Assembly (NCBI GenBank): GCA_965198235.1
Contig: OZ240248.1
Location: 3,808,001-3,872,000, forward strand
Source: Candidatus Poribacteria bacterium
Lineage (GTDB): Bacteria > Poribacteria > WGA-4E > WGA-3G
Direction: 5' to 3'
Length of the DNA stretch: 64,000 nt
In this document: piece by piece, positions 11,110 through 58,412 of the stretch
Numbering within the stretch: position 1 is the stretch's first letter
Layout: every line of letters starts with the position of its first letter
Translations under genes and position numbers: made by a program
Notes under the pieces: generated by a model
Databases searched by the model: none
Told to the model about the DNA's origin: nothing
What the model saw: only the letters and a program-made list of their open reading frames with translations

Positions 11110-11325
11110 TTTTTAATTATGGCCTCCTGAGTTTTTTAACTATGGGGCTTTTTGGCCACCGCTCCATTACATTACGCGGTGGTTTCCGATGAACCTCAAC
11201 CCTATTAAGGATCTGAATATTTTTCTCTTTCTTAATTAACTGCACGACTTTAGAATATCAGTTTAGGATGATCAGAAACCTGCCCGTAATGAAATGGAGG
11301 GCAGTCCAGTGCCCCAAAATTAAAA
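11110..11325. repeat. Two divergently oriented copies of the TTAAAAA-terminal hairpin element
   Basis: Minus copy CCACCGCGTAATGTAATGGAGCGGTGG...CCCCATAGTTAAAAAA; plus copy CTGCCCGTAATGAAATGGAGGGCAG...CCCCAAAATTAAAA overlapping the lolD stop. Confidence 0.75.
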
Positions 11326-11997
11326 GACCTTTCCGTCAACGAGTTGGATAACCCGATCTACTTGTTGGGCGAGTTCTTGATTGTGGGTTACAATAACAAA
11401 GGTCTGCCCAGATTTGGAGTTTAAATCCCAGAGCAGTTCTAAGACCGCGTCGCTACTCCGCCGGTCAAGGTTACCAGTTGGTTCGTCAGCGAGTACAATC
11501 TTCGGTTGATTAATCAGTGAGCGGGCAATCGCGACGCGTTGCCGTTCACCACCAGACAATTGACTTGGGTAGTGCGAAAGCCTTTCGGATAGCCCAACGT
11601 AGTCCAGCAATGACTCTGCCTCTTTATAAACCATTTTATTATTTGATGATGTAATTAAGGCACCCATTGCGACATTTTCAAGTGCTGTAAATTCCGGTAA
11701 TAAGTGATGAAATTGAAACACAAAGCCAATTTCTTTGTTCCGAAATCGAGCAAGTTCTGTATCGGATAGTGTGAATACATCTTGTTCGTCGTATAAAACG
11801 CTTCCTGCTGTTGGCCTGTCAAGTGTTCCAATAATATGAAGCAACGTGCTTTTCCCTACGCCTGATGCTCCCACGACTGCGAGTAATTCTGACATGTATA
11901 TTTCAAGGTTGATGCCTTGAAGAACAGGCAGTTCCGACTCGCCATCATAGTAGGACTTGTGTAAATCTACGATGCGGATAAGTGTGTCTCTATTCAT
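11320..11997 (-). CDS. lolD: Lipoprotein-releasing ABC transporter ATPase
   Basis: GASGVGKST, LSGGERQR, LADEPTGNLD; overlaps the end of lolE. Confidence 0.9.
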   Translation of the reverse strand: MNRDTLIRIVDLHKSYYDGESELPVLQGINLEIYMSELLAVVGASGVGKSTLLHIIGTLDRPTAGSVLYDEQDVFTLSDTELARFRNKEIGFVFQFHHLLPEFTALENVAMGALITSSNNKMVYKEAESLLDYVGLSERLSHYPSQLSGGERQRVAIARSLINQPKIVLADEPTGNLDRRSSDAVLELLWDLNSKSGQTFVIVTHNQELAQQVDRVIQLVDGKVF

Positions 11998-13450
11998 GTT
12001 GTAAGGCTTCAACCGGTTTCAGGTTTGCCGCTTGCCATGCCGGGTATAGCGTCGCAAACCAACAGATTAAAAATGAAAGCACATTGATGAAAACAACAAA
12101 GAACCAATTCACCTGTATCGGCAGTTGATTCATCTGATAGACTTGACTTAGCCCAAGATCTGCGAGCGAAATTGGTGTAACAGCACAGTAGAGCACGAAT
12201 CCAATCGCAATGAGCCATAAAAGACTGATTGCGAACATCCATCCCTTACGGCGTGGTATTATTCGCCTCAGAGCAATTAGCACTTGTAGGAAAATTGGCA
12301 CAATGAGTACAACGGCGTACCAGTAAGACGGACGCGCTGAATTGTAACTCAGAAGCCAACAGAGAATAAGTCCCAGAACTGTGCCGAATATCGTTCCAAG
12401 CATCCCGATGACACTCCCTTGAATCATGAAAATCCGCATAATGTTTCCGCGTGAAGTACCGAGTGTCCGTAGTGTCCCGACATCTTTTGTCTTTTCCATC
12501 ACGGTCATGATGAGTGTGCTTGCGATGTTAAAGGATGCGACCAAGATGATAAGTGCTTCAATAATGACAGTTGCTATCTTTTCCAATCGAAGTGCTGAGA
12601 AGAGTGGTGCCTGCATTTCCATCCACGTTCTGGCATCCGGCATTCCTTCTAAGACGGAGAAATGAACTTTATCCTCAATCCGCCGGGCGATCCGAGGGGC
12701 TAATTCCGCATCGGTTAATCGAACGAAGATCGTATTTACCCGATTCTCTTTGTTATACATCTTTTGAGCGGCTTCTAAATGAATAAACCCGAAGTTGTTG
12801 TCATAAACCGCCAGCTCCGACTCATAGAACCCAGTCACAACGAAGTTCGCCAAGTCCGGTATGAGCATCGACTCGTTCACAGGGTGTTTCGCAAGGTTCA
12901 CGATGAGTCGCAGCAGGTCACCTTTAATGACCCCGAGGCGAGCTGCCAAACGTCCCCCGAGTACAATCCCACCTGTGATAGTTTCATCTCTGATGAGTCG
13001 AGCGGCTTCAATAAACTGGGAGTCTTGGAACGCAGTTGAGCCATCCACGAATTTTGAGAAGCCAGTGACTTTGTCTTCCTGAACTGGGTCGATGCCCTTG
13101 ATGTAAATTACGTCCTGAATGGTATTGCTGCGTTCCTGAAAAACAGCACTTTGTGCCCAAACAACAGGTGATGTGGCTACGACTTCGTCAATTGTCTCAA
13201 TTTGTGAAATACGTTTTTGGTAATCACCAAAGAAACTGTTATCGTGCAGGCGGAGGACGACGTGCGCCTCATTTGCGAGGAACCTATCCTTAAGCCCCTG
13301 TTCAACACCGTCTAATATAGCACTTACGAGTATTACTGTTGCCACACCAAGCGCGACACCCCCAATGGAAATAGTACTGATAATTGAAATAAAGGATTGT
13401 TTGCGTCGTGAGCGTAGGTAGCGGGAGGCTACGAACCATTCAAATCTCAT
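11990..13450 (-). CDS. lolE: Lipoprotein-releasing ABC transporter permease LolC/E
   Basis: MRFEWFVASRYLRSRRKQSFISII start, ASFNIASTLIMTVMEK, ATLYPAWQA end. Confidence 0.88.
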   Translation of the reverse strand: MRFEWFVASRYLRSRRKQSFISIISTISIGGVALGVATVILVSAILDGVEQGLKDRFLANEAHVVLRLHDNSFFGDYQKRISQIETIDEVVATSPVVWAQSAVFQERSNTIQDVIYIKGIDPVQEDKVTGFSKFVDGSTAFQDSQFIEAARLIRDETITGGIVLGGRLAARLGVIKGDLLRLIVNLAKHPVNESMLIPDLANFVVTGFYESELAVYDNNFGFIHLEAAQKMYNKENRVNTIFVRLTDAELAPRIARRIEDKVHFSVLEGMPDARTWMEMQAPLFSALRLEKIATVIIEALIILVASFNIASTLIMTVMEKTKDVGTLRTLGTSRGNIMRIFMIQGSVIGMLGTIFGTVLGLILCWLLSYNSARPSYWYAVVLIVPIFLQVLIALRRIIPRRKGWMFAISLLWLIAIGFVLYCAVTPISLADLGLSQVYQMNQLPIQVNWFFVVFINVLSFLICWFATLYPAWQAANLKPVEALQHE

Positions 13451-13569
13451 ATTTTTAACTTTGGGCTTCTGGGCATCCACCAGCAAGGCGTTGCACATCC
13501 GCCGCATCTTCAAGTGTAAGCGACCGAAGTAGCAGTCTTTCTGTAAGGAGGGGCGGCGCGGTTTTCATA

Positions 13570-15042
13570 TTAACTTTCTGGACGCATCTGTGGAAACAGG
13601 ATTACGTCTCGGATGGAGTATTGATTGGTTAGCAACATTGTAAGCCGATCGATACCGATACCGAGTCCACCCGTCGGTGGCATGCCGTATTCCAAAGCGC
13701 GTAAGTAATCTTCGTCCACCATGAAGGCTTCATCGTCCCCCGCTTCTAAACTGTTCGCCTGCTCAAGAAACCGTTGACGTTGATCAATCGGATCGTTGAG
13801 TTCGCTAAAAGCGTTTCCAACCTCCATTCCGCAGATAAAAAACTCAAAGCGTTCAACGAACTCTGGATTATCGGGCTTCTTTTTTGCAAACGGTGAGACT
13901 TCGATCGGGTGATCCGTTATAAATGTTGGCTGAATCAGTTTCGGTTCCACAAATTTGTCAAAGAGTTCAGCGATTATCTTCCCTTTCGTCTCGTCACCTA
14001 CCAGGTCAACACCGACGTTCACTGCTTTCTTGTATAAATCATCCGCTGAGAGTGGAACGGGATCTATACCGCTGTATTCCCGAACTGAATCCACCATGCT
14101 CAGCCTGCGCCAAGGGGGTGTGAGGTCGAGTTCATGTTCTTGATAATGAATCTTCGTTGTCCCGTGAATGATTTTCGCGGTGTCAGCGATTAGGGTTTCA
14201 GTGAGCTCCATTATCTGGATATAGTCAGCATAGGCTTGGTAGAGTTCAAGCATTGTGAATTCGGGATTATGATCCCTGTCCATTCCCTCGTTTCGGAAAT
14301 CACGAGAGAACTCATAAACACGATCGAACCCTCCTACGATTAGACGCTTGAGGTAGAGTTCATTTGCGATACGCAGGTAGAGTGCTTGCTCCAATGTGTT
14401 ATGATACGTCGTGAAGGGACGAGCGTTTGCACCACCATAAATTGGTTGAAGGACGGGGGTTTCTACTTCAATAAAATTTTGCTCATTAAGCATGTCACGT
14501 ATCGCTTGAACAATTCGTGTCCTTTTAAGGAATACGTCCTTCACCTCAGGGTTCATGATGAGGTCTGCGTAGCGTTGTCTGTAGCGTGTTTGTTTATCTT
14601 GTAAACCGTGCCATTTTTCAGGGAGCGGTCGGACAGATTTTGAAAGGAGATGGACAGCGTCAACAAGGACAGTGAGTTCACCCGTGCGCGTCCGGAAGGC
14701 TGTTCCCTCGGCACCAACAATATCACCCGTATCAAAGCGTCGATATGCTTTGTACGGCTCTGCTCCTACATTGTCCCGTCGGACGTAAATCTGAATTCTA
14801 CCTTCACCGTCTTGCAGGTGTGCAAAACTGCTTTTTCCGTGGTCGCGTTTCGTCATGATCCGACCGGCAATTCGGATCTTCTGAGTTTCGTCAGGTGTTT
14901 CTTTAATGTCAGCAAAGTCTCTATGGATGGCGGAGGTCGTGTGTGTAGGTTCATATTTATGCGGATACGGTTCTACGCCAAATTTGCGAATTTCATCCAA
15001 CTTCTCGCGACGTTGCTGAATTAGGTCCTTTGTTTCTTCCAC
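13570..15042 (-). CDS. lysS: Lysine--tRNA ligase (class II)
   Basis: YGGANARPF, FRNEG, HNPEFTMLE, GMPPTGGLGIGIDRL; GTG start at 15042 (alternative ATG 15060). Confidence 0.98.
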   Translation of the reverse strand: MEETKDLIQQRREKLDEIRKFGVEPYPHKYEPTHTTSAIHRDFADIKETPDETQKIRIAGRIMTKRDHGKSSFAHLQDGEGRIQIYVRRDNVGAEPYKAYRRFDTGDIVGAEGTAFRTRTGELTVLVDAVHLLSKSVRPLPEKWHGLQDKQTRYRQRYADLIMNPEVKDVFLKRTRIVQAIRDMLNEQNFIEVETPVLQPIYGGANARPFTTYHNTLEQALYLRIANELYLKRLIVGGFDRVYEFSRDFRNEGMDRDHNPEFTMLELYQAYADYIQIMELTETLIADTAKIIHGTTKIHYQEHELDLTPPWRRLSMVDSVREYSGIDPVPLSADDLYKKAVNVGVDLVGDETKGKIIAELFDKFVEPKLIQPTFITDHPIEVSPFAKKKPDNPEFVERFEFFICGMEVGNAFSELNDPIDQRQRFLEQANSLEAGDDEAFMVDEDYLRALEYGMPPTGGLGIGIDRLTMLLTNQYSIRDVILFPQMRPES

Positions 15043-15267
15043 AGTTCTTCCCCTTTTCATTTTATTTTTTAGGATAGACCGTTGCTATACTTTATAGTAA
15101 AGTTTGGACAATTTGTGTCGGTTAGCCATTGCGTTTTTCAGTATCTTCGTATTTTTCTACGAGTTTGGTGTTTCGACGTAACGTGGAAAAAAACCTATTT
15201 ACGTTCGACTCGCGTTAGTATAAACATAGCAAGCCGAAGAAAGTGCGTTTCCATCTGTATCCTTTTT

Positions 15268-15370
15268 CTATAGACATATCACCCCTACGGGGTGGGGCTT
15301 CCCATATTCAGTGGGTCTCGCCAATACAGATGTTGCTTCTCTTTGCTCCAGCGGAGCAATATGTCTATAG
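15268..15370. repeat. Inverted doublet of CTATAGACAT-hairpin REP units (REPIN-like)
   Basis: CTATAGACATATCACCCCTACGGGGTG (15268-15294) faces TTGCTCCAGCGGAGCAATATGTCTATAG (15343-15370), the same unit as the transposase flanks. Confidence 0.75.
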
Positions 15371-15405
15371 TCCTATGTCTGAAAAATTGTCCAAAGCTTA
15401 GTACT

Positions 15406-15514
15406 TTATAGTAAAGCCCACAATTATTTGGACACGGAGGACCAGGTTAGCGAGTTTTGGGCAGGCACAAGACCGGCCCCTACAAGTGTTCACTTATTTT
15501 CGGGTTTCACTATA
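15406..15514. repeat. MITE-like element with imperfect TIRs enclosing a GTAG REP hairpin
   Basis: TTATAGTAAAGCCCACAATTATTTGGACAC ... GTGTTCACTTATTTTCGGGTTTCACTATAA. Confidence 0.6.
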
Positions 15515-15571
15515 ATAATATTTTAATAATTATACCTTAGTTTCGTCCATAAAGCAACCAAAAAAGCAGTA

Positions 15572-16676
15572 TTATTTCTGCTGAGCCTTCATTTTGAGGT
15601 AGCTTTCGATGAAGGGGTCTAAAGCACCATCCAACACAGCGTTAACATTACCCGTTTCGACATTTGTGCGCAAATCCTTGACGCGTTGGTACGGGTGCAG
15701 GACGTACGACCGAATTTGGCTCCCAAAGTTAATTTCTAAGCGTTCGCTTCGCTGCTTTGAAAGTTCTGCCTCCCGTTCCGCACGATATTTCTCATGAAGA
15801 CGGGAACGGAGTAATTTCATAGCGATTTCTCGGTTCTTATGCTGCGAACGTTCATTCTGGCATTGGACGATAATTCCGGTGGGTTTGTGTGTAATCCGAA
15901 CTGCTGAATCTGTGACATTGACGTGCTGCCCACCCGCACCGCTCGCGCGATAGAAATCTATCCGTAAGTCTTCGGATTGAATATCCACTTCCACGGTGTC
16001 GTCGATTTCAGGGGTCACGTCGATAGCGGCGAAGGAGGTATGCCGCCGCTTGTTGAAATCGTAGGGGGATAACCGAACGAGCCTATGCACGCCCGCTTCT
16101 GCTTGAAGATAACCGTAAGCCGAAGCACCTGTAACGAGGATTGTTGTGCCTTTGATGCCGGCTTCGTCCCCTGCGGTGAGGTCTACGATTTCGGTCTGAT
16201 AGCCGCGCCGGTCGCACCAACGGAGGTACATACGCATCAACATCCCCGCCCAATCCTGTGCGTCAATCCCGCCAGCACCAGAGTGAATGTTGAGGATTGC
16301 GTTGTTCTCATCAAATTCACCCGTTAGCATTAAGCGGAGTTCCATCTGTTCGAGATCTCGTGTGACAGTGTCCAATCCGTCGGCAATCTCGTTTTGGAAA
16401 CTCCCATCGTTCTCTTCGGTCGCGAGTTCGAGCAGGGTTTGGATATCTTCAACTTTGAGAGCGAGGTCTTCGTACGCCCCAATTTCATCTCGGAGGATGG
16501 AGATTCGTTGGTTAACTTGTTGAACGCGTTGCGTATTGCTCCAAAAATCAGGAGCAATTGTCGCCTCTTCAAGTTCTGTTAATTCTTTTCGTTTTTCAGC
16601 CAGGTCAAAGATAACCTCTGAGTTCTTGGAGGCGGGTCTGCATCTCTTCAGCCTGGTTTTTTAAATCTACAAGCAT
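15572..16676 (-). CDS. prfB: Peptide chain release factor 2 with programmed +1 frameshift
   Basis: ATG 16676 gives MLVDLKNQAEEMQTRLQELRGYL then CTT TGA C; the +1 frame continues DLAEKRK into the 15572-16375 ORF; GGQ and SPY motifs. Confidence 0.96.
16604..16619 (-). promoter_or_regulatory. prfB frameshift cassette (internal SD plus CTTTGAC)
   Basis: Minus strand AGAGGT-TAT-CTTTGAC. Confidence 0.95.
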
Positions 16677-16704
16677 ATTGTTCCTCATGAATAGTCATGA
16701 ATAG

Positions 16705-18390
16705 TTAAGAATCTCTACGACGAACCCACATTATGATTTGACTGCCGAACCATCCAACGCAAATAAGGGCGCAAAGAATCGGAAACCAGTCGCCGTAGCG
16801 GGTATAGAGTGTCTGTTTGTGTTCCGTGGATGAGAGAAGTGGGACGGATGCGATGAGAATTTCCTGAGTGGTGTCAGGTGTAATCATGGGAGTCGTTATC
16901 CTACCAAACTTGTCTACGACGCACGTAAATCCACCATTTGCGCATCGGAACACAGCAATTCGGTTCTCAATCGCGCGGAAAGGTGCCATGGATAGATGCA
17001 GTTCGGGGAAAGCAGTCCCTTTGAACCAAGCATCGTTCGTGAAGATCCCCATCACTCTGGCACCCATTTTTACGGGGCTGCAAAATTCATCTGGAAACAC
17101 CGATTCAAAGCAAATCGAAGCACCGACCTCTATCTTCCGGGTGTTCGTCTTATTTTTAACGTCAAACACCGGTAAAAGGTTTACTGTTTTTCCATGAGCG
17201 AAAGGTTCAAACTGGATAAAATTGGGGATAAAATCCGGCAGGAGGTGTGCCAAAGGCACGTATTCACCAAACGGAACAAGGTGCATCTTCGCGTATGATC
17301 CATGTATCTTTCCATCTGAAGCTATCGAAAGGACGCGGTTGTATATTTCCGTATTTCCTTTTTCAGCATTTTTGGAAAATTGACCTATCGCTTTGTCTGT
17401 TTCTCCCTGGTTAGCCGTACCGAGGAGTATTGGAATCCCTATATCACGAAGCATCTGCGAGAATCTTCTGTAATATGTTGGCCACTCGCCTGTCAATGCC
17501 CTACTTCGTGTTGCAGTTTCGGGCCACACAATTAACTCAGGGCCTTCTCTGCTGGCTTTATGCGTCAACCCGATATAGCGTTGCAGAATTTTTGGAAACT
17601 GACGGAGATCCCACTTTTGAAGTTGCGAGATGTTGCCGGGGATGAGCGCAACTTTTAAGGTTTCGACGTTTGTTTGAGTCGTTGCGTTTGTACCCTGGTC
17701 TAAGGAGTCAGCGTTCTGTAGTTGGAAGATCCCGTAACCGAAACAGAAAATCGTCAGGGTCAGTGGCAGGAGGACGGCACGAATTTCCTGTCGCCATTGG
17801 TGGCGGTTACAAAGCAAGGTAGCGATGCCGGCATTGAAAAGCATGATGACGAAACTGATACCGTGTACGCCAACAAGCGAGGCTATCTGTATTCCCGGTA
17901 GATTGTTCCATTGCGAGTAACCGATACTTCCCCATGGAAACCCCGTTATCATCCAACTCCGCATCCACTCTAATGCTGTCCAGATACATGCAGCGGACAG
18001 AGAAAACAGGACGTTAGAACGCCTCGGCACAAACCTCATCAGCACTGCGAAAGCAGCGAAATAGAGTGCTGTGTATCCCACTAATAGTAAGTACCCCACC
18101 ATTGTAGCAAAGATATTCGCATACGGATAGAGAAGCAGGATGGCGGGAAGCAGACCTGCGAAAAATAGAAAACCCGTTAGATAGCCAATCCAAAATGCCT
18201 TTTTCCAATCTGTTGCTCGCGTTAAGGCAATGAAGAATGGCACCATCGCGACCCAAGCAAACGGAAAGAGGTTTAAATTTGGGAAACTGAGGAACAGCAA
18301 CAGTGCTGAGAGTACCGCAAGTATCCAATGGTGGTAGCGTTTCAAATTTTTAATTTTACCTTGCGGTTCGGTGAGGTGGGTTTGATACAT
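16705..18390 (-). CDS. lnt: Apolipoprotein N-acyltransferase
   Basis: TGFPW, WPE, KMHLVPFGEY, ICFES triad; the true start may be TTG at 18345. Confidence 0.95.
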   Translation of the reverse strand: MYQTHLTEPQGKIKNLKRYHHWILAVLSALLLFLSFPNLNLFPFAWVAMVPFFIALTRATDWKKAFWIGYLTGFLFFAGLLPAILLLYPYANIFATMVGYLLLVGYTALYFAAFAVLMRFVPRRSNVLFSLSAACIWTALEWMRSWMITGFPWGSIGYSQWNNLPGIQIASLVGVHGISFVIMLFNAGIATLLCNRHQWRQEIRAVLLPLTLTIFCFGYGIFQLQNADSLDQGTNATTQTNVETLKVALIPGNISQLQKWDLRQFPKILQRYIGLTHKASREGPELIVWPETATRSRALTGEWPTYYRRFSQMLRDIGIPILLGTANQGETDKAIGQFSKNAEKGNTEIYNRVLSIASDGKIHGSYAKMHLVPFGEYVPLAHLLPDFIPNFIQFEPFAHGKTVNLLPVFDVKNKTNTRKIEVGASICFESVFPDEFCSPVKMGARVMGIFTNDAWFKGTAFPELHLSMAPFRAIENRIAVFRCANGGFTCVVDKFGRITTPMITPDTTQEILIASVPLLSSTEHKQTLYTRYGDWFPILCALICVGWFGSQIIMWVRRRDS

Positions 18391-18626
18391 AGAGTACCTC
18401 TCCGTAGAGTCACCCTCCTAGCGCAAGCCTTTATAGGCTTGCGGGACAATGTTACGGGTTTACTGTTTAGTTTTATTTTTAATGCTGTAACCGAAAATGG
18501 TAGCCTGCATTCTCACTGCGAAGCAGGCGCAGGCGGATATAAGAAAAAACCTTCAAGGTGCATCTGGTGTTTTCATCGCTCAACCCAACCTACGCTTGGA
18601 TTTCTATTCTCAAACTCACGTTTACA

Positions 18627-24657: not shown

Positions 24658-24806
24658 GTCAGCAATTGGTTATCGGTTATCAGTTATCGGTTAAGAGGTT
24701 TTCGTCAGATCCAAAGTGGTAGCCTGCAACAACGGCGCAGGCGTGTTTAAGAGAGGCACACCAAAGACAGAACCCACGTTATTTCTCCGCAAGGTAAAAT
24801 TAAAAA

Positions 24807-36756: not shown

Positions 36757-36903
36757 ATTGATTGCAGCGTCTCTTGATGATTGTTCATGTTCCTATTCCC
36801 GCTGGAATTAACCGAAAACCATCGTGGAACGTAGTGGAACGATGAGCAGATTTTAATAGCTTAAAAAATGGTTTTTGCGTAAACGGGTTGGACTGACTTA
36901 AAT
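36724..36903 (+). repeat. 35-bp perfect direct repeat enclosing a 110-bp element
   Basis: TGGTTTTTGCGTAAACGGGTTGGACTGACTTAAAT at 36724-36758 and 36869-36903. Confidence 0.92.
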
Positions 36904-36961
36904 GGCTATCGGAAACCGTCAGTCGTCAATAACAAGGATGGAAGGGTGAACGGGTGGAACG

Positions 36962-37654
36962 ATGAACAGAAACCCCATAGTTAAAAAATTTTGGATCGGT
37001 TGTTTCCTCTTTTGCGCCGTGACTGGTGTACAGGTGAAGCAGGGTTCGCAGGCTTCCGATGTCCCGATAACTATCGCCCAAATCCATTATAGTGGCGGTG
37101 GTGATTGGTATGGCGACGCGACAACTATCAAAAACTGGCTTCAACTCCTCCGAAATCGAACAGATATTGAGACCGCTGAGGACAGGGTGATTATTAAGTT
37201 GACGGATCATAGCCTTTATCAGTATCCAATACTCTATATGGTAGGACACGGGAATATCCAATTGACTGAAAGTGAGGTTGAGGCATTGCGGGATTATCTC
37301 AAGAGTGGTGGGTTTCTGTTCGCCAATGATGATTACGGGCTTGACAAAAGTTTTCGTCGTGAAATGCAGAGAGTATTTCCAGAGCAGGAACTACAGCCTA
37401 TCCCAAACATGCACCTGATTTATCGCTGTTTCTACGAGCTTCAAGGACTCCCCAAAATTCATGAACACGACGCTGAACCCGCACAAGGATTTGGGCTTTT
37501 TCATGATGGACGTATGGTCGTTTACTATGCCTACAGTGCTGACATCGGTGATGGGCTTGAGGATGCCGATGTACATCCAGACGATACACCCCAGGTCCGT
37601 GAACTTGCGTCGAAAATGGCAGTAAATATTGCTGTATATGCGCTGACGCATTAA
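36962..37654 (+). CDS. DUF4159-domain protein
   Basis: YSGGGDWY, YPILYMVGHG, LRDYLKSGGFLFANDDYG, DIGDGLED, NIAVYALTH. Confidence 0.85.
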   Translation: MNRNPIVKKFWIGCFLFCAVTGVQVKQGSQASDVPITIAQIHYSGGGDWYGDATTIKNWLQLLRNRTDIETAEDRVIIKLTDHSLYQYPILYMVGHGNIQLTESEVEALRDYLKSGGFLFANDDYGLDKSFRREMQRVFPEQELQPIPNMHLIYRCFYELQGLPKIHEHDAEPAQGFGLFHDGRMVVYYAYSADIGDGLEDADVHPDDTPQVRELASKMAVNIAVYALTH

Positions 37655-37793: not shown

Positions 37794-37901
37794 GAAAATT
37801 AACTGAAGATCGCAAGTCCGAAATGTAATGGAGGACGACTCTACGGAAATTGAGGTCAGTTTCCTAAGCACGCCCATCAAACCGCAAGGTAAAATTAAAA
37901 A

Positions 37902-40900
37902 ATGCACAAACCTACTTCACCAAACCGCAAGGTAAAATTAAATGATGTGAACGCGGCTTACGGAAACCTTATTGATCGATTGCGTGCTATTCGGCGACAG
38001 TGGCGATGGCTCACTTTCTCTGAAGGACTCTTGAAGTGCATCGGTATTCTTGCCCTTGTAATGGCAGGGACACTTATCATTTTAGCGATGAGTTTCCAGT
38101 TATGGCAGTTCCCCTTCTCGCGCTGGATACGCATCGCGATCATCCTATTATCAATAGGTGGTGCCGTCTATGCAGTCATTCGGACATTCGTTCTACCGCT
38201 CTGCAATAAATTGACGGACGCTGCTGTCGCGTCGCGCCTTGAATCGACGCAGACAGAGGCAGCCTTCGCCGCTGAAAATCGGGTTCTCAGTGCCGTCCAG
38301 CTTTGGAAGACTTTGGAGAACAACCGGCTTGGGTATGCCCCAGAATTCGTTGAACATCTGATTGTCCAAGCCAGCCGGGATATGGAGCAGGTTCAGCACA
38401 GACGGGTATTTCAGCCCGAATTTCGGAAGATTAGACGAAATGCAGGTGTCGCTGTCGGCGGAGTCGTCCTGCTCCTCGTTATACATTTCCTTTTACCTAC
38501 CGCGTTTACAGGCTTCGCACAGGCTTTCCAGACCTTACCAAAAACGCTGCAAGACGATCAGGAATATCTAAAAAAGTCCATTCAGATTACAAAAATCCAG
38601 CCCGGTAATATCCAAATTGAACGAGGGACCGATGTTAACGTAACTGCTGAAGTAGGCGGACATCTTGGGGCTCCCGTCGTACTTTACTATCGCGTTGCGG
38701 ATGAATCGGAAACCATCGGTTTCCATCATCAACTTGTTAAAAAACCTTCCATCCTTGATAGCGGGTTGGACTTCACCGAAAACCACCGTGAAACAAAGTC
38801 GAACGGTGACCGGATTCAATCGTTTAAAAAATGGCAATCGCTATCTATGCCCCGTATGTCTACTGATGCCGGACGGAGTTTACAGGTTTCCGAGATTTCG
38901 CTGCCCTACAGCGCGACGCTTGAAAATGTGACACGTCCACTTCAATACTATATTTCGGTCAAAGAGGTAACATCGGAACAGTACCAAATAACAATCAGCA
39001 ATGAACCGATTGTCACGCAGTTCCAGTATCGACTCAATTACCCTGCCTACACGCAACTACAGTCCCAGACGCTTCCAGCAAACGTCGGGGACATCCAAGT
39101 GCTTTTTGGAACAGAGGTTGTGTTCACTGGGGAGAGCAACAAACCGCTTCAGAAGGCACACATCGCTTTTGATGCGTCAGGTGATGTTCCGTTGGAGATT
39201 AGGGAACGACAGTTACAGGGTGCTATTACACAATTAATGAAGGATGAACAGGAAGCCGCCTCCACACCGCAAATAATACAAGGATCTTTTGTTGCTCGAC
39301 AGAGTGAAAACTATCGTATCTACATTACCGACGTTGACGGATTCATGAATCGAGACCCCGTTAACCGGACGATTACCGTTCTCGAAGATGCCGCGCCCGA
39401 TGTTGCTATTGTCGCACCCGCACGCGATACCGTTTTAGACGATGCTATGTTGGTTAAACTTAAGGTAGAGGCAACAGATGACTACGGTATACAGGAACTC
39501 CAATTGGTATACCGCGTTGAGAGTGAAGGTGCCGAGGAGGTAAATGTGCCTTTAAAACGTTGGGAGGTCGAGGGCGCGCGCTCACATAGATCGGTTTTTG
39601 TGGCATACACGTGGGATGTCGATCGGATTGGTATTTTCCCCGGCGAAACGCTCGCGTATTACGTTCAAGCCTTGGATATTGACGATGTCTCAGGACCGAA
39701 TATCGGCAAGTCTCATACCTACACACTCCGCTTTCCATCCCTCTCCGAGTTATACGACGCGCTCGCTACAGAGCAGGAAACCGAACAACGCGGGCTTGAA
39801 GAACTCGTTGACGAACAGGCAGACGCGACCGGTCTGGTTGACACGCTTCTCGATAAAATCAGGAAAAGCCAGGAACTCACCCTTAATGACGAAAACCTGA
39901 TGCAACAGGTCCTTGAAAATCAGAAACAGATTGAGGAGACGGCGAAGCAGCTCATCGAAGACATGCAAGAGACAGCGGAAGAGATGGAACAGAATCAACT
40001 CTTTGACGCTGAGACCATCGAGAAGTATCAAGAACTGCAAGACCTGATGGAGAAAGCACTTTCTGAAGAACATAAGGAGCTTTTACGGAAGTTATCAGAG
40101 GCACTCGCAAAACAGGAGATAGATGAGCAAGAGCGGTCGATGGCGGAAGCGAATCTCAGTCAAGAACAGTTCTTACAACAATTGGAACGTGCCAAATCGC
40201 TCTATGAACAGATTCTCCTCCAACAGGAGCTCGAAGCTGCGGCGAAACAGGCGAAGGCACTCGCCGAACAGCAGAAGCAGTTGATGGATACGTTGGAGTC
40301 GTCGGAACAGTCCGCACCTACAAGCGACCTCGCACAAAAAGAGGACCGGGTGGCAGATGAATTCAAGCAGCTCAGCGGAAAGTTAGAGGAACTCGGCACA
40401 AAAATGGGGGAACTGGCGCAGAATAACGAGAACGCCCCACCGCAAATAGAACGACTTGCGGATGAAATCATTCGACTCAACCAGTTTGCGCACGAGCATA
40501 AACTGTCTGAAATGCTTGAAGCGACGAGTGAGAATCTCCGGGGTGGGCAGAATAGCGAGGCACTCGAATCGGGACGAGACGCGGAACAGACCCTCACAGA
40601 ACTCGCACAGGGCTTGGATAACGCGTTGGCGTTCATGGAAGGGGCAAACGCCAACGAAACCTTGACCGCACTGCAGGAAGCCGTTGAAAGTGGGCTCCAC
40701 CTCTCACATCTTCACGAGAAGGTCCTCACGCAAACGAACGACATCCTTGTCACTGGGCAGTCTGATGCTTACATTTCAAGTGAGATTGTGCGATTGCAAC
40801 AACTCGCCGCTGATGAACTTAGTACAGCAGAGAGTATCACACAGCTTTCCAGCAAACTTTGGGAGTTAGGGAACCGACAGATAGAAGTCCCACCTGAGGC

Positions 40901-41633: not shown

Positions 41634-41896
41634 CAGGACTTACGCAAACGCCTTTGCTTAGCGTTGTAAGCGAAACCTCGCCAGTGGCGCAAGGAGAGAA
41701 AAGAGAAACAGCACAAGTCCTCAATCTCAGTCGCAAATTAACCGGAAACCTGCCTGAAATGAAATTATGCCTTAAATGGCATAATTTTGCTTCGCAGTGT
41801 CCCACAAGTTTCCTATAGAGGCTTGCGCAGAATGCTTTACATTTGGAGGGGTTTTTGCTTGGGCGTTTCTTTAGCCCAGGAGCAATAAATTAAAAG

Positions 41897-42916: not shown

Positions 42917-43197
42917 TAGCATCAGAAACTGAGCCTGAAATGTTTTTTAAATAATTGGTCTTTGGACACCGCTCCGAATGTAAGCAAGAACAAATTATGC
43001 CATTTAAGGCATAATTTCATTTCGCGATGGTTTCTGGTGAAACTCACATCCGACTCTAAAAAGGGACGTGCGGTTCACCAAGAACCTGCCTGAAATGAAA
43101 TGGAAGGCAGCCCAGAGGCCCATAAATTAAAATCCTGCCCGAAACGAAGTGGAGGGCAGAGCGGAGACCCATAGTTAAAAAAAGGAAAATTAAAAAT

Positions 43198-49969: not shown

Positions 49970-51298
49970 ATGAAACGGTTCATCGCTTTATCGCGGAAGG
50001 GTAACGTCGCACCCAGTGGGCTTTTCTTCATTGGGATGCTTCTCGTTTCGTTCGGTTTAGTAGGATGTGGCGGAAAACTCGGAAAAATAGAAGCATCAGC
50101 AGTTGACACGGCGATCGCGGACGCTGAAGCAGCTATTGCAGCGGCAGTAGCGGTTGATGCACCGACACTCGCATCGGATGTGTTTGAAGCTGCGAAAGCC
50201 AACCTTGAGGCTGCAAAAACAGCACTCGACGAGAAAAAAGGAAACGATGCGCTCCGCCTCGCATATCAAGCGATGGCTAATGCCACACTTGCTCGAACGA
50301 ATTCTATCAATATCACTAAAAATTCGGAATTGAATGCATCTATACTCCAGAAGGAAGCTGAAGCAGAATCACTTCGCGAGACTGTTAGTAGTAAAAAGGA
50401 AGAACTCGCAGGGCTTCACTCCGAGATTCAAGACGTTCAGAGCAAGGGAACGCAACTGAAACAGACCGTTCGCGACCTCCAGAAAGAGAATCGTGAGTTG
50501 GGCGATACACGGGCAGCCTACGGGGAACAGGTCGCACAACTCTCTGAAACTTTAGGAGAGATTCAGAGACGTGCTCGACGGGCGGAAACCGAGATTCGCA
50601 ATTACGGTAGAGAGGTTGCAGCACTCCGTCGGAAACTTGAAGTTGCTGACAGAATGGTGAAAGAGGAAGGGTATCAGAAACGGTCGGTTATCGCTGAGAT
50701 AGATTCTCTTAAGAGACAACTCCGTGAACAGGCGCAAATTTATACCGAGAAACTTGCAGAAGCCAACCAGCAAAATGCAGGCGCGAAGCATGCGGAATAT
50801 CTCAAACAGAAAGCACAAGAGGCGCGGGCGTATGTTGACAGTCAACCGGCACTCCATCCTGCTAAGACCGGGCGCATTACGCTTTCTACTGAACAGATTG
50901 CAGCTGGCAAGATGGCACTTAGTAATTGGGAGCGCGCATGGCATGCGAAGAACTTCAATGGACACCTTGCCTACTATGAACCTAATATTATTGCCGACAA
51001 AGTCGTGATTCACGAGAGTAAAGAACATCGAAGTAAAATCGATCTCCAGCAACTCGAAGCAGATCTTCACCAGATGAGCACCCACGCGTGGAACAAAGCC
51101 AAAGCCGATACCGAGGTCGAGGGAGAAAGTGTTATCGGTATCCATCGACTGACCCGGTTGGCGACTCCAGCAGCAGACGAGAACGCTACGGAGCTCTACA
51201 ATATTTGGATTCGCGAAGTCTGGATGCATCAAGTTGGTAACGACTGGAAAATTCATCACGAAATCTGGCAAATCTATGAGAACGTACCAAATTTTTAA
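49970..51298 (+). CDS. Lipoprotein: DUF4398-like plus long coiled coil plus NTF2-like domain
   Basis: Lipobox LVGC, Ala-rich helical domain, WERAWHAKNFNGHLAYY...WKIHHE. Confidence 0.7.
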   Translation: MKRFIALSRKGNVAPSGLFFIGMLLVSFGLVGCGGKLGKIEASAVDTAIADAEAAIAAAVAVDAPTLASDVFEAAKANLEAAKTALDEKKGNDALRLAYQAMANATLARTNSINITKNSELNASILQKEAEAESLRETVSSKKEELAGLHSEIQDVQSKGTQLKQTVRDLQKENRELGDTRAAYGEQVAQLSETLGEIQRRARRAETEIRNYGREVAALRRKLEVADRMVKEEGYQKRSVIAEIDSLKRQLREQAQIYTEKLAEANQQNAGAKHAEYLKQKAQEARAYVDSQPALHPAKTGRITLSTEQIAAGKMALSNWERAWHAKNFNGHLAYYEPNIIADKVVIHESKEHRSKIDLQQLEADLHQMSTHAWNKAKADTEVEGESVIGIHRLTRLATPAADENATELYNIWIREVWMHQVGNDWKIHHEIWQIYENVPNF

Positions 51299-51466
51299 TT
51301 TTTTAATTATGGACTCTTGGGCTACACGACTACAGACAGGTTCTGCCTCACGGTAGAAAATACGCCAGCAGAGCAAAATGTCTGTAGGTTCTGCCTCACG
51401 GCAGAAAATACAATGCCCCTTCTTGCTCCAGCGGAGCAAAATGTCTGTAGAAGCGGAGGTTAAATC

Positions 51467-54098: not shown

Positions 54099-54222
54099 CA
54101 CCCGCAACACCATAAGAGGGTTATCGGTGAATTGGCTATCGGCTGTCGGCTATCGGCTTTCAGCAAAGAGGTTTCTGATGAACCAGACTCTTCTTGCTGA
54201 CCGCTGATGGCTGACGACTATC

Positions 54223-57200
54223 TTGCTGACAACTATCAAACAGATTATGCGCGAATTTTCTTGGAGTTCTTTCAAGTATTTTTGGCAGATACACCTTATC
54301 GTCGCGCTTTGCACTGCTGTGGCGACGGGTGTGCTTGCGGGAGCGTTGATTGTCGGAGATTCTGTGCGAGGAAGCCTGCAGAGCTTAACACAGGAACGAC
54401 TCGGCACAATCCAACATGCCCTCCTCGCTGACCGTTTTTTCCCGCCAGACATCCTATACCGACAGAACACAGTCTCAGCAATCTTGCTGAACGGGACAAT
54501 CGTTGCGCCACAAACGCAGACGCGGGCATCGAGAGTCAACATCCTCGGTGTCCAAGATAGTTTCTTCGCATTTTGGGAAGGAAACGCCGCGCCAAGTCTG
54601 AACAAAACAGATGAACAACCCTTCAATGCCATCGTCATCAACGAGGCACTACAGAACGAACTGAACGTCCAAGTAGGCGACACGCTCCTCGTAAATGTCC
54701 CCCAAGCCGCTGACATCCATCCAGAATTCCTTCTCGGCGAGCGCGACGCATCCGAGGCTATCCAAAGCCTACGCTTGATTATTAGTGAAGTTGTTCCCAT
54801 TGAGAATGCTGGGAGATTTAGTCTTCGCGCACATCAAAGTCTTCCGTTGAACGCTTTCATCGCGCTCCCGGTTTTACAAAGAGTACTTGGGCAACGGAAT
54901 AGGGTAAACGCTCTGTTTACGGCGGAAACAGTCCCAATTTCGTCTGACGATCTCGCGTTGCGCATAGACGCACTCGACTTGGACGTTCAAGAGCACGGCA
55001 CTCACTTTGATGTCCAAAGTCAGCAGTATCTCCTTAAGCCGATTTTTTCTGACCTCGCGCTAACGATCGCTGCTGAAAACCGAATTCCAACGCTCCCGAC
55101 ACTCACCTATCTCGCAAATACGATCTCTGCAAATGGCAAAACCGTTCCGTATTCGACAATCGTCGCACTCCCCACTGATGAAGGGGAGTTTTCTGAACTT
55201 CTTAGCAAAAACACTACAGAGAAACCGCAGATAAACAACGAAAACCAAGCCCGAAATGAAATGGAGGGGTTTTTGCCTGAGCGTTTCTTCAACTCGAACA
55301 CGGAAGACCCTCAAACTTCAAATCCCGTTGTTTATCCGCAAGGAAAATTAGAAAATCCTGAAATTATCCTCAATACATGGACGGCGACCGACCTCGGCGT
55401 GGAAGTCGGTGACGAGATCAGCGTCACATACTATCGCGTTGGGGCGGGAGAAGAATACATCACGGAAACGGCTCTGTTCCGCCTGAAGGGGGTTCTGCCA
55501 ATTGAAGGCATCGCCGCCGATAGAGACCTCATCCCTACTTTTCCCGGTATCCATGATACCGCTGATATGTCTGAGTGGGAATCCCCATTTCCGATCGATT
55601 ACTCACTTATTCGTGGTAAAGACGAAGCGTATTGGGATGAATACGGTGCGACACCGAAAGCGTTTATTCCACTGGAAACCGGTAAGCAACTTTGGAAAAA
55701 CCGATTCGGGGACCTCACCGCCATTCGGTTGGGTATTGCGCTAGACGCAGACTTGCAAGCAACACGCACGCTTTTTGAAACCGAATTCCTCAAAAAGATT
55801 CAACCGGAACAGGTTGGATTCCGATTCTTGGCACTTCAATCTGACGGACTTCAAGCCTCCGCCGGTGCAACAGATTTCGGAATGCTCTTTAGCAGTCTGA
55901 GTGCCTTTATCATTATTGCTGTCGCTTTGTTAGTGGGGATGCTTTTCCGCATCGGTGTAGAGCAACGGTCGCGTGAGATCGGTGTATTACAAGCGATCGG
56001 TTATCCCCTCACCAAAATCCGTCGCCGGTTCCTCTATGAAGGAGGTATCATCGTCGGTATCGGTAGTTTATGGGGTTGTCTGCTTGCGGTCGGGTATGCG
56101 CAATTGATGATATTCGGTTTACAAACGTGGTGGCTCCCTGCTATCGGGACCCCGTTTATGGAACTTCATGTCAGCGTATGGAGCTTGCTAATTGGCGCAC
56201 TTATTTCGTTGGCTGTGGTAATGCTCTCTATCCGCCTGACTGTCCACAAAGTGGGAAAAACTTCCACCGTGTCCCTCCTCGCGGGTAAAACCGATTTTGT
56301 TGAGGCAGCTGTAGGAGACAAACCCAAAAATAGGTGGATGGGACCCCTGAGCTGGTTGGCCGCCGCGATTGGGTTCGGGATAGGTATATGGGTAGAACAG
56401 CCTGTGGTGAGTCTACTGTTTGTAGCACTGTTGGTTATCGGCATCGGGTCGGAGGTATTCAATAAATGGTTAAAATCACAGAATGTACCGAAACAGTTGA
56501 ACAGAGTGCGGTTCGCCATCAGAAACGCTGCGCGACAACCGGGACGGAGCAAGACCTGTGTTACCACAATCGGTATAGCGTGCTGTATCATCGTTGCGGT
56601 GGGGGCAAATCGACACGATGCGCCACCAGAAACGGAATACGCCTTTGTCGCTGAATCCGTGCTCCCTTTGCACCATAACCTGAATACACCGGACGGTAGG
56701 TTTGAACTCGGTTTTTCTGATAAAGCCTCTGAGCTGCTTAGTGCGTCGGAGGTAATTCCGTTTCGTGTGTTGCCGGGTGAAGATGTCAGTTGTCTGAATC
56801 TCTACCAGCCCCAGAAACCGCAAATTTTGGGTGCTTCTGATGCGATGTTAGACGGAGCTCCTTGGATCAGCCTGAATCTGATGTCCACTGAAAACGGTAA
56901 AGTTCCTGCTATCGGCGATGAAAAGTCGCTCCGTTGGATTTTGCATCACAATCCGGACGATGATTTTATCGTCCAAGATGAATTTGGAAAGCCGCTCCGT
57001 CTCGAACTTGAGACGATTGTGAACAGTCTTTTCCAAAGCCAATTAATCATCTCTGAATCCAATTTCACGAAATACTTTCCCAGTCAAAGCGGATACCAAT
57101 TTTTTCTCATCAAAACGCCGCCTGCTTTGCGGGAAGAGACGGCGCAAGTCTTAGAGAAAACATTAGGGGATTACGGTTTTGACCTTGCGTCTGCATCCGC

Positions 57201-57609
57201 ACGTTTGGCGAGTTATCGGGCGGTTGAAAATACTTATATCTCTACTTTTCAAAGCCTCGGTGGTTTAGGGGTGCTGCTCGGTACTTTCGGGTTAGCACTG
57301 GTGCTGTTTAGAAATATCATTGAACGCCGTGGCGAATTAGCGACTCTGCGTGCCTTCGGTTTCAGACGGCGACTTCTCTCGTGGATGCTTTTCCTCGAAA
57401 GTTGTTTCCTCCTCGTTATTGGAATGCTTATCGGGATTGTCGCCGGACTTGCCTCGATTTTTGCTTCGCAGGGACATCTCCCGTCCTTTCCGTGGTTTTC
57501 CCTTACAATTACCTTGCTTTTCATCTTCGGTTTTGGTATAATTGCAAATGCCGTTGCCGTTGCTGTGGCACTTCGAAGCCCGCTCTTGACAACGCTCAAG
57601 TCTGAGTGA
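54223..57609 (+). CDS. Large FtsX/MacB-like ABC permease
   Basis: GALIVGDSVRGSL; two FtsX segments (EQRSREIGVL, ERRGELATLRA); start may be ATG at 54247. Confidence 0.85.
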   Translation: MLTTIKQIMREFSWSSFKYFWQIHLIVALCTAVATGVLAGALIVGDSVRGSLQSLTQERLGTIQHALLADRFFPPDILYRQNTVSAILLNGTIVAPQTQTRASRVNILGVQDSFFAFWEGNAAPSLNKTDEQPFNAIVINEALQNELNVQVGDTLLVNVPQAADIHPEFLLGERDASEAIQSLRLIISEVVPIENAGRFSLRAHQSLPLNAFIALPVLQRVLGQRNRVNALFTAETVPISSDDLALRIDALDLDVQEHGTHFDVQSQQYLLKPIFSDLALTIAAENRIPTLPTLTYLANTISANGKTVPYSTIVALPTDEGEFSELLSKNTTEKPQINNENQARNEMEGFLPERFFNSNTEDPQTSNPVVYPQGKLENPEIILNTWTATDLGVEVGDEISVTYYRVGAGEEYITETALFRLKGVLPIEGIAADRDLIPTFPGIHDTADMSEWESPFPIDYSLIRGKDEAYWDEYGATPKAFIPLETGKQLWKNRFGDLTAIRLGIALDADLQATRTLFETEFLKKIQPEQVGFRFLALQSDGLQASAGATDFGMLFSSLSAFIIIAVALLVGMLFRIGVEQRSREIGVLQAIGYPLTKIRRRFLYEGGIIVGIGSLWGCLLAVGYAQLMIFGLQTWWLPAIGTPFMELHVSVWSLLIGALISLAVVMLSIRLTVHKVGKTSTVSLLAGKTDFVEAAVGDKPKNRWMGPLSWLAAAIGFGIGIWVEQPVVSLLFVALLVIGIGSEVFNKWLKSQNVPKQLNRVRFAIRNAARQPGRSKTCVTTIGIACCIIVAVGANRHDAPPETEYAFVAESVLPLHHNLNTPDGRFELGFSDKASELLSASEVIPFRVLPGEDVSCLNLYQPQKPQILGASDAMLDGAPWISLNLMSTENGKVPAIGDEKSLRWILHHNPDDDFIVQDEFGKPLRLELETIVNSLFQSQLIISESNFTKYFPSQSGYQFFLIKTPPALREETAQVLEKTLGDYGFDLASASARLASYRAVENTYISTFQSLGGLGVLLGTFGLALVLFRNIIERRGELATLRAFGFRRRLLSWMLFLESCFLLVIGMLIGIVAGLASIFASQGHLPSFPWFSLTITLLFIFGFGIIANAVAVAVALRSPLLTTLKSE

Positions 57610-57833
57610 TGGATCCAAGTCTAAAGACTTGGGAAACTTCCGCAACCGAACGCGGAAGTCCTTTGGAATTAACCGAAAATTGGGGTCTCTGCCCATCACT
57701 GGGGCGGAGCGTGAAACGAAGAGTCATAAAATTAGTACAAAGATTTAGCTTGGAACGAAGTGGAAAGCGGAACCCATGAAAAAACTGTGAAGTACCAAAC
57801 CACGTGCCTTAACCGACAGGAATAGTTAGAAAA

Positions 57834-58412
57834 ATGTCTCGCATTGTATATGCAATCCTACTTGCCTCTTGCCTCCTGATGCAGAGCGGGTGTTCCGATG
57901 ATCCCGATCCAAATACGTCAAGTGCGCTGAATCACATGGAACGGGGATGGCGTTCCTACGAATCAAGGGACTATGCACAGGCATTACTCAGTTTTGAGCG
58001 TGCAATCAACTTCGATGAAGATCTTGCCGATGCACATAACGGCGTGGGATGGAGTCATCTCAGCCTATCGCTAAATCCACCACTGGTACAAGAAGCGTTC
58101 CAGAACGCCGTGCAACTCGATCCGTCAAATGCGGATGCATGGGTCGGACTTGCGAATCTGCTTTTTTTGCGCCACAAAGATACAAACGATTTCCGATCTG
58201 CTATCCGAGCGATTGATAATGCGCTACAAGGTGATGCCCAATATCTCTTCCGGCACGACTATCGTTCCAAAGCCGAACTCTATGTGCTTAAGGCGGCGTG
58301 CTATTACTATCTCGGTGAAGATGCGTCTGCAAAACAGGAAGTAGACAAGGCACTCCAAATTGAAACTACAAATAGGACAGCCATTGTGCTACGAGACCTA
58401 CTCAAAGAATAA
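57834..58412 (+). CDS. TPR lipoprotein
   Basis: Lipobox QSGC, TPR helices (AHNGVGW, AWVGLA). Confidence 0.8.
   Translation: MSRIVYAILLASCLLMQSGCSDDPDPNTSSALNHMERGWRSYESRDYAQALLSFERAINFDEDLADAHNGVGWSHLSLSLNPPLVQEAFQNAVQLDPSNADAWVGLANLLFLRHKDTNDFRSAIRAIDNALQGDAQYLFRHDYRSKAELYVLKAACYYYLGEDASAKQEVDKALQIETTNRTAIVLRDLLKE

Follow-up and report, generated by a model that had tools for sequence, protein, structure and literature searches.

A 64,000-nucleotide (nt) window from a genome of Candidatus Poribacteria (assembly GCA_965198235.1, contig OZ240248.1, positions 3,808,001 to 3,872,000) holds approximately 16 copies or fragments of one modular repeat, each unit of which consists of a 5' box, a hairpin head, an optional middle module of ~45 nt and a terminus of 13-20 nt, followed by TTAAA(AA). 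We consider this element, with a probability of roughly 0.6, to be a non-autonomous, modular mobile repeat of the repetitive extragenic palindrome (REP), bacterial interspersed mosaic element (BIME) or MITE (a miniature transposable element with inverted repeats) kind, which inserts at TTAA/TTTAA, is most likely moved by a Y1/HUH transposase and is placed at gene boundaries. Units are present or absent at orthologous sites, the terminus side joins the flank at TTAA/TTTAA, and units can sit in frame within open reading frames (ORFs). A scan of species-representative genomes with the first 18 bases of one terminus type returned at least 127 loci, at least 125 of which come from at least 26 assemblies, 24 of them with Poribacteria and 2 with 'uncultured bacterium' in the title; two more are chance matches in Scandinavium and Chlamydiae records. 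The repeat family is spread through Candidatus Poribacteria and is common to many of its sponge-associated members.

Orthologous loci supply filled and empty versions of the same site. Locus L030 is 86-87% identical to window positions 24826-26584 and has ~175 nt where the window has a 12-nt spacer; the upstream gene ends in TTT TAA in both, and in L030 the element follows directly, in reverse orientation. Locus L055, 87-91% identical to window positions 5838-9706, carries the element after the bamA stop codon; the BamA proteins of L055 and the window end in the same four residues, and in the window TTC TAA is followed by other sequence. Locus L039 shows a stop codon, 2 nt and the next ATG, and its orthologue L063 has an element of ~136 nt in that junction; this pair supplies the pre-insertion state, a tight stop-start junction. 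In L094 a full unit lies inside the TTAAAA of an older terminus, and L012 has that older copy without the unit. Empty sites retain TTT TAA or TTAA at the junction in three pairs. Terminal inverted repeats were not seen by eye in the L030 and L063 inserts: apart from a shared TTAAC, the ends of these inserts and of the window copies are without an inverted repeat.

Presence and absence are also visible in proteins that contain the element in frame. One copy (55231-55355) is translated within an FtsX-like permease ORF (54223-57609), and the element-encoded segment is recognisable in 12 of 27 aligned orthologues of this protein; one carrier has two tandem copies and another the terminus part only. 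Among the non-carriers, 8 of the 27 have a short linker without an insert and 7 a different long insert. A second case is a DUF4175-like protein, in which a partial copy (37907-37944) encodes a 10-residue N-terminal extension present in 8 of 25 aligned orthologues, and a further copy (38767-38832) encodes a segment found in one of the 25, the window's own protein. An earlier description made from the window's letters (the sequence-only reading) had proposed either a mobile element or one that supplies the translation-initiation region, and had suggested a search for empty sites in related genomes. Mobility is supported by three clean filled/empty DNA pairs and by in-frame protein inserts in two ORFs.

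The placement of the element was analyzed in 146 distinct copies, of which 142 lie in loci (among the matches listed by the 18-mer scan) and 4 in the window, with 2 chance matches included. With the ORF start taken as the first start codon that opens at least 90 codons, a simple rule in place of a gene finder, a long-ORF start is found 0-4 nt after TTAAA in 57 of the 146 copies (39%), 5-25 nt after it in 20 and 26-60 nt after it in 5. A convergent long-ORF stop is nearby in 42 copies, and 22 have neither a nearby long-ORF start nor a convergent stop. In 28 of the 42 stop-near copies (28 of 146 overall) the terminal TTA is itself the TAA stop of the convergent ORF. The control set comprised all remaining TTAAA sites in 78 sources, 77 loci plus the window, each 2 kb or longer. 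Start-adjacent sites make up 46 of 112 element-linked TTAAA vs 44 of 688 others (Fisher test, 7e-20), and stop-adjacent sites 17 of 112 vs 27 of 688 (2.5e-5). About half of 43 control start-adjacent sites that were inspected are internal in-frame codons, and most of the true starts among the control sites bear the other terminus type or a degenerate terminus. Terminus variants outside the scan pattern are start-adjacent in 10 of 28 cases, and 7 of the 47 gene starts in the window touch a terminus.

Could A/T-rich sequence before starts, together with short spacers, produce this closeness with no biology behind it? The bare heptamer TTAAAAA is indeed only modestly enriched in the window (26 occurrences vs 15.7 in shuffled sequence, with 2 of 100 shuffles reaching 26), and the signal therefore resides in the longer element. 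The 20-mer terminus has three exact copies and one with two changes in the window and none in 100 shuffles, and the second terminus type, a 14-mer, has 7 matches vs a shuffled mean of 0.12. Together with the excess of element-linked over other TTAAA at starts, the element variants among the 44 control sites and the second sharp peak at convergent stops, these counts refute the explanation, to which we assign next to no probability.

The context of start-adjacent copies indicates what the element inserts into. For at least 29 of 37 start-adjacent copies, the first thing met upstream, at 120-300 nt, is a co-directional ORF's stop codon, so that the element occupies the spacer of an operon. Two spacers in the window, the one between lysS and lolE and the one ahead of the gene starting at 24807, have the same build. 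Closeness to starts thus probably follows in large part from insertion into tight stop-start junctions. The sequence-only reading had suggested that the element targets TTAAAA/ATG boundaries and had asked for a test of positional enrichment: the enrichment exists at starts and stops alike, but ATG does not hold as the target, as the empty sites show TTAA/TTTAA overlapping the stop codon. The preferred target would be a TAA stop with T-rich surroundings. Depending on its orientation, the element would either come to follow the stop of a convergent gene or land in the tight stop-start junction of an operon and fill the spacer. After insertion at such a junction, its A-rich tail and TTAAAAA would directly precede the next ATG, and the tail would then serve as the translation-initiation region of the downstream gene, since the former Shine-Dalgarno (SD) position is now more than 100 nt away.

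The same positions allow a different emphasis, in which the repeat is adapted to boundaries and does not merely end up at them. It would supply a TAA stop and the last codon in one direction, and an SD-less or leaderless start context in the other, this context standing, as part of the same claim, a fixed 6-7 nt before ATG. We regard this as a possible reading, with a chance well short of even.

The fine spacing at starts also bears on transcription. The commonest start-adjacent arrangement is TTAAAAA followed by ATG; of the 142 locus copies, 7 have 1 nt between TTAAA and the start, 35 have 2 nt, 9 have 3 nt and 2 have 4 nt. ATG is the start codon in 48 of the 53 start-adjacent locus copies vs 21 of 32 at larger distances, and when the start is 5-25 nt off, a GGAG-type motif often lies between terminus and start. 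A mobile promoter for leaderless mRNAs, with a -10-like hexamer six bases before ATG and transcription starting at the A of ATG, would account for several of these features. The last bases of the element and the first T of the flank read TAAAAT, TATAAT, CATAAT or AATAAT, the distance from hexamer to ATG is exactly six bases in 35 of the 53 start-adjacent locus copies, and unselected copies bear TATAAT, CATAAT or AATAAT at the same place. The preference for ATG in adjacent copies fits as well, as does the GGAG-type motif often present when the start is 9-19 nt off, as in a very short leader; Correia elements and other MITEs are reported with promoters in an excerpt of PMC10969869. Against this, no -35 element is present, and A/T-rich sequence easily resembles a -10 box. 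A sigma-70 scan of window positions 10000-26000 flagged none of 4 termini and gave a total equal to that of shuffles, so a canonical sigma-70 promoter in the terminus was rejected. Furthermore, the copies behind a co-directional gene (at least 29 of 37) have no need of a promoter of their own, and the same terminus abuts stop codons when reversed. On balance we consider a mobile promoter unlikely.

The element has short and long forms. In the short form, the hairpin is joined straight to a terminus of ~23 nt; in the long form, a middle module of ~45 nt precedes a 13-nt terminus, and more modules are often added on the 5' side. Heads form a hairpin whose 4-5-bp stem is free in sequence and whose 13-nt loop is nearly fixed and internally paired. 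Pairing is found in 88.6% of cells over 55 copies, a value reached by none of 500 shuffles. The outer stem is partly imposed by selection of the copies (55 of 66 loop-motif matches have at least 4 of 5 outer pairs), but the inner loop pair is not, and it occurs 29 times as U-A and 26 times as C-G, without a single unpaired case (n = 55). The hairpin is real, supported by covariation in these 55 copies. Of 42 long-form heads, 20 have an exact GTAG across the base of the stem, and others are one base off; 13 short-form heads carry AAACC-type boxes where the long forms have GTAG. A covariance model of the head (R1) finds in the window its 8 seed copies, a weaker match at 38773-38809 (E 0.009) and a marginal one at 18490-18537 (E 0.34), which is a different hairpin type; in the 78 loci it finds 49 matches. 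Both the family of the 5' box with the hairpin (D1, D5) and that of the terminus (D7) are also picked up by the repeat finder. After the terminus, TTA[AG]A is present in 28 unselected variants, where the pattern requires it, and, by eye, in most copies bearing CCGCAAGG. Gene boundaries were not seen at any fixed distance from the element's 5' end, where the flanks are heterogeneous. Tandem repeats of a variable heptamer or nonamer unit occupy many spacers, often directly 5' of long-form elements (5465-5489, 20917-20981, 23024-23105, 24664-24690, 52889-52913, 54130-54221 and 60757-60781; also in L030, L032 and L094); in DUF4175-like orthologues, repeats of this type are apparently read in frame as an 'LTTDN'-type insert.

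The copies in the window are as follows.

11110..11192, minus strand: short form with 5' box, hairpin and two tandem terminus units (11133-11146, 11110-11123); R1 match 11156-11192, 36.1 bits. The terminus 11110-11123 lies 0 nt from the ilvE ATG at 11109.
11269..11326, plus strand: short form in the opposite orientation to the preceding copy; R1 match 11269-11305, 40.4 bits. Its terminus (11313-11326) overlaps the TAA stop of lolD (11320-11322, minus strand).
13452..13569, minus strand: degenerate copy identified by sequence reading, with no R1 match. It fills the entire spacer between the lysS stop (13570) and the lolE ATG (13450), with TTAA at both borders; the terminus (13452-13465) is 1 nt from the ATG.
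18347..18470 (5' limit approximate), minus strand: long form upstream of lnt with a nested hairpin in the head, middle module and 20-mer terminus (exact, 18347-18366); similar to 24751-24806 (56 nt) and 37907-37942 (36 nt) (I2, I4). The terminus and a T precede the putative lnt start, TTG 18345, 1 nt off; an alternative start, ATG 18390, gives a longer ORF that reads through the element.
24664..24806, plus strand: full-length long form (exact 20-mer 24787-24806; sequence reading) that opens at its 5' side with heptamer repeats and continues with a 5' module, a head with a different type of hairpin, the middle module and the terminus. It fills the spacer between the stop of a PorV-like gene (24657) and ATG 24807, at a distance of 0 nt, and is 79.7% identical over 138 nt to a non-orthologous copy in L029.
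36809..36868, plus strand: short form ending in TTAAAAAA; R1 match 36809-36845, 35.4 bits; family D11.
36907..36988, plus strand: degenerate copy with terminus 36974-36987, identified through its translation, with no R1 match.
37795..37901, plus strand: long form with hairpin, middle module and 20-mer terminus (exact, 37882-37901), 0 nt from ATG 37902; R1 match 37803-37839, 34.7 bits.
37907..37944, plus strand: second, partial copy with the 3' part of the middle module and a terminus with 2 mismatches (37925-37944). It falls inside the beginning of the 37902 ORF, has an in-frame GTG after it at 37945, and is 92% complementary over 36 nt to the opposite-strand copy 18349-18384 (I4).
38767..38832, plus strand: short form in frame in the DUF4175-like ORF (1243 aa); 80% identity over 50 nt to 36803-36852 (D5), weak R1 match.
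41738..41896, plus strand: copy with a hairpin loop interrupted by a small palindrome, more modules and a terminus variant (I1, D1, D19). The variant terminus ends in G and is 0 nt from ATG 41897.
42992..43041, minus strand: 88% complementary over 50 nt to 41738-41787, of which it is the inverted counterpart; 5' box and hairpin are interrupted in the same way (I1).
43075..43197, plus strand: two tandem short-form copies; R1 matches 43075-43111, 39.3 bits, and 43124-43160, 40.7 bits; terminus 43168-43181. The final terminus, part of which is duplicated, stops 1 nt short of the SPFH gene's ATG (43198).
51290..51313, minus strand: solo terminus, partly duplicated, identified by pattern matches and sequence reading. 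It abuts and overlaps the TAA stop of the convergent gene 49970-51298, the unit at 51300-51313 being the part that abuts.
55231..55355, plus strand: full long form in the FtsX-like ORF, with hairpin, extra module, middle module and terminus variant; R1 match 55236-55272, 38.8 bits.
57675..57833, plus strand: degenerate copy with 5' box, hairpin and degenerate terminus, upstream of ATG 57834; R1 match 57735-57771, 39.9 bits.

Every site named in the sequence-only reading was found as it had described, the one at 57834 with a degenerate terminus, and three copies add to its list: the in-frame copies at 55231-55355 and 38767-38832 and the partial copy at 37907-37944. The copy at 36907-36988 contains the start of a DUF4159 ORF (ATG 36962), the first nine codons of which span the terminus; no later in-frame start of this ORF was found ahead of a hydrophobic signal-like stretch. 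The copy at 36809-36868 sits between exact 35-nt direct repeats (36724-36758 and 36869-36903). The repeated sequence is the 3' end of gene 34351-36756 including its stop, encloses a stretch of 110 nt and exceeds the length of an ordinary target duplication. One small palindrome (41765-41782, 42996-43013) is inserted in the hairpin loops of both inverted copies at 41738 and 43041, which flank gene 41897-42916 (339 aa). The resulting 1.3-kb unit (41738-43041) was considered as an insertion sequence and rejected, since the 339-aa protein has no transposase family match in Pfam or NCBIfam.

A conserved hairpin upstream of genes might also belong to a non-mobile cis-regulatory RNA leader of a regulon, either riboswitch-like or a protein-binding 5' untranslated region. 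Such a leader would agree with the strong covariation, with an invariant loop that contains GGA and pairs internally, a feature of RNAs that bind proteins or ligands, and with the usual place upstream of and co-oriented with a gene. The downstream genes, however, are functionally unrelated (ilvE, lolE, lnt, the SPFH gene, DUF genes and many more), copies also occur reversed at gene ends, inside ORFs and in tandem arrays, and presence or absence differs between orthologous sites. Rfam 15 gives no match in the window at the gathering score, and a tRNA scan of the window found nothing. The middle module has no conserved helix: the alifold consensus amounts to merely 2 bp at about -0.9 kcal/mol, mutual information tracks subfamilies and not pairs, and the longest stems do not exceed those of shuffles (4.65 vs 4.89). 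Beside the terminus there is a weak 5-bp pairing, one side of which is fixed by selection of the copies. An RNA leader as the sole explanation is already largely refuted, and we judge it highly improbable.

The modular build is relevant to another possibility, a retroelement resembling short interspersed nuclear elements and inserted by target-primed reverse transcription at TT/AAAA, which would explain the A-rich 3' end and 5'-truncated copies. Full units do exist beside copies reduced to the terminus or to the middle module with the terminus; the junction is within TTAAAA, TTAAA is followed by a variable number of A's, and the newer unit in L094 sits within an older terminus, in its TTAAAA. 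When similarity is followed from the 3' end, however, it breaks off in discrete peaks at ~20-25, 55-65 and 80-85 nt, which correspond to the terminus, the middle module and the head, and not in a continuum. The heads are alternative hairpin modules, suggesting recombination over truncation, and the GTAG-tagged hairpins point to REP-type biology. With no reverse transcriptase linked to the element and no long target duplications seen in the filled/empty pairs, a retroelement has a very slim chance of being correct.

For a mobile repeat inserting at TTAA/TTTAA, movement would most likely proceed through a single-strand, hairpin-recognising HUH/Y1 transposase of the IS200/IS605 or RAYT (REP-associated tyrosine transposase) type acting in trans; an enzyme of this kind would insert the element beside a 4-5-nt target without inverted ends. 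We infer insertion of the IS200/IS605 kind because no inverted ends are seen, TTAA/TTTAA is found at one end and a hairpin is carried. The window contains one IS200/RAYT-like Y1 transposase gene (45634-46113, minus strand), which scores 72 bits with the IS200 model (cut-off 55) and 28 bits with the REP-associated model (cut-off 80). On either side of the gene stand inverted pairs of a second hairpin repeat (region 45480-46320), each repeat followed by a conserved tail of ~10 nt, in a layout that resembles a REPtron. Dispersed copies of this second repeat are found at 15260-15379, 49927-49961 and 51351-51459.

Several observations weigh against parts of this mechanism. A search of the window found no transposase tied to the element; the Y1 gene is flanked by the second repeat family and not by the boundary element, and the short forms have a single hairpin and no GTAG. 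TTAA stands on both sides of the insert in L063/L039, which fits a TTAA duplication more than an IS200/IS605-like insertion, and the L030/window pair shows a target overlap of at most 0-4 nt. The bases before ATG in L063 differ from those of the empty L039 site; the element may therefore bring its own TTAAAAA instead of using an existing one. The start counts depend on the simple ORF rule given above, and the putative role of the terminus as an initiation region is drawn from its position. Two further points concern age and selection. No recent burst is seen in the sampled copies: non-orthologous copies are at most ~93% identical over at least 83 nt. In 11 orthologous pairs the mean identity of element bodies, taken upstream of the terminus, is 0.70 vs 0.72 at third codon positions, no better than the third-position value, so that purifying selection on the bodies was rejected.

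The body identity values in these 11 pairs are bimodal because upstream modules have been swapped. Conservation of the terminus in the pairs is preselected, as both members were found through the 18-mer. Several insertions are common to species whose third codon positions are just 63-81% identical, and the family is therefore old.

The window itself is otherwise ordinary for bacteria, with ~48% G+C and housekeeping genes that include dnaJ, grpE, lpxD, ompH, bamA, ilvE, lolD, lolE, lysS, prfB, lnt and groEL. Its closest DNA and proteins are those of Candidatus Poribacteria: parts of the window match two loci at 79-91% identity, and the named relatives of two window proteins are poribacterial. 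The cumulative GC skew has its minimum at ~20000-26000, and gene orientation changes from minus to plus at ~23 kb; element copies mostly share the strand of the genes on either side of this switch. The region may contain a replication origin, but no dnaA gene was seen. Genes for a PcrB-family protein (geranylgeranylglyceryl phosphate synthase-like) and for a UbiA prenyltransferase are near neighbours (2264-3010 and 4347-5195, minus strand) and make up, in a bacterium, a gene pair for ether lipids of the archaeal type. The gene for release factor 2 (15572-16572, minus strand) is split over two overlapping ORFs (16330-16572 and 15572-16375), and its Pfam PCRF match begins only at profile position 75, as would be expected from the programmed +1 frameshift that is usual in prfB. 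A 788-nt stretch (26585-27372) with a gene of the Uma2 family (26745-27335, putative restriction endonuclease-like) is absent from the orthologous L030, in which the flanking genes are only 6 nt apart. The ubiA-lpxD spacer, ~500 nt in the window and ~17 nt in the orthologous L055, holds an exact 42-nt repeat with 49-nt spacing (5518-5608). Another dispersed repeat of 18-20 nt occurs in spacers in both orientations (18576-18593, 23217-23236, 30358-30377, 30565-30582).

Among described elements, the closest relatives of the poribacterial repeat are GTAG-type REP/BIME sequences, IS200/IS605-derived elements and Rickettsia palindromic elements (RPEs). Like REP/BIME sequences, it forms short, abundant, mostly extragenic hairpin repeats in a mosaic of alternative modules, with GTAG at the stem base in about half of the long-form heads. 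An excerpt of PMC3733652 describes GTAG REPs as providing stop codons, lying inside ORFs and sitting between unidirectional or convergent ORFs; the poribacterial copies resemble them in lying between such ORFs, in overlapping stop codons and in sometimes occurring within ORFs. As with RAYT-linked REPs, the window has an IS200/RAYT-like gene between inverted hairpin repeats, but unlike in a REPtron the flanking repeats belong to another family. Unlike REPs, the poribacterial repeat conserves its 13-nt loop and varies its stem, and its hairpin is followed by a non-palindromic module of ~45 nt and an A-rich terminus of 13-20 nt. The stop it supplies is TAA from the terminus, in contrast to TAG from GTAG, and 39% of the copies end 0-4 nt before a start codon.

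Transposase-less derivatives of IS200/IS605 elements are known as PATEs. The poribacterial repeat shares with IS200/IS605 a hairpin structure and the lack of visible terminal inverted repeats, and differs in having no linked tnpA or tnpB, a single hairpin in the short forms, TTAA on both sides in one filled/empty pair, and solo termini in tandem. According to an excerpt of PMC13565253, members of IS200/IS605 have end hairpins, no inverted ends and no target duplications, and IS605 inserts beside TTTAA or TTAAC; similarly, one end of the poribacterial element is always at a short target, the reverse strand reading TTTAA and then the element. A MITE derived from a DDE insertion sequence would have terminal inverted repeats and a target duplication of fixed length; beyond the shared TTAAC no inverted repeat is visible at the ends of the poribacterial element, and the protein of the 339-aa gene between its inverted copies has no transposase family match. 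Correia elements of Neisseria have inverted ends and a TA duplication, and pneumococcal BOX elements have a modular boxA/B/C build. As described for Correia in an excerpt of PMC10969869, and like BOX, the poribacterial repeat is small, non-autonomous and found just upstream of genes, with possible effects on expression; unlike Correia, it has no visible inverted ends, a TTAA junction and exact spacing to ATG. The same excerpt describes Correia elements with promoters and RPEs that insert in frame. In behaviour, the poribacterial copies resemble RPEs in adding peptide segments to variable loops, but most are intergenic at gene boundaries, and the lineage is unrelated, as the sequence probably is too.

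The statement in the sequence-only reading that no described family behaves in this way was too strong, given GTAG REPs (in the excerpt of PMC3733652) and RPEs and Correia elements (in that of PMC10969869). Hairpin repeats, stop overlap, in-frame copies, upstream placement and modular build are already known singly in other families. What is new is the combination of a conserved loop and variable stem, a long non-palindromic tail, a TTAA junction and exact start and stop peaks across the phylum; a full-text literature search found no description of poribacterial repeats or leaderless genes.

The sharp peaks at starts and stops offer a clean system for studying how small repeats choose sites and how they are tolerated. 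Through in-frame copies, proteins gain ~10 to 40 residues from a repeat. Start-codon calls in Poribacteria can be misled by ORFs that read through the element, as in lnt, lolE and the 37902 ORF. If the terminus drives translation or transcription, the expression of many poribacterial genes would hang on a mobile repeat, and its copies would be natural portable initiation regions. Should the repeat be adapted to boundaries, a sizeable share of genes throughout the phylum, among them the essential lolE, lnt and ilvE, would owe their stop or start context to it, and it would have added peptide segments to proteins as well.

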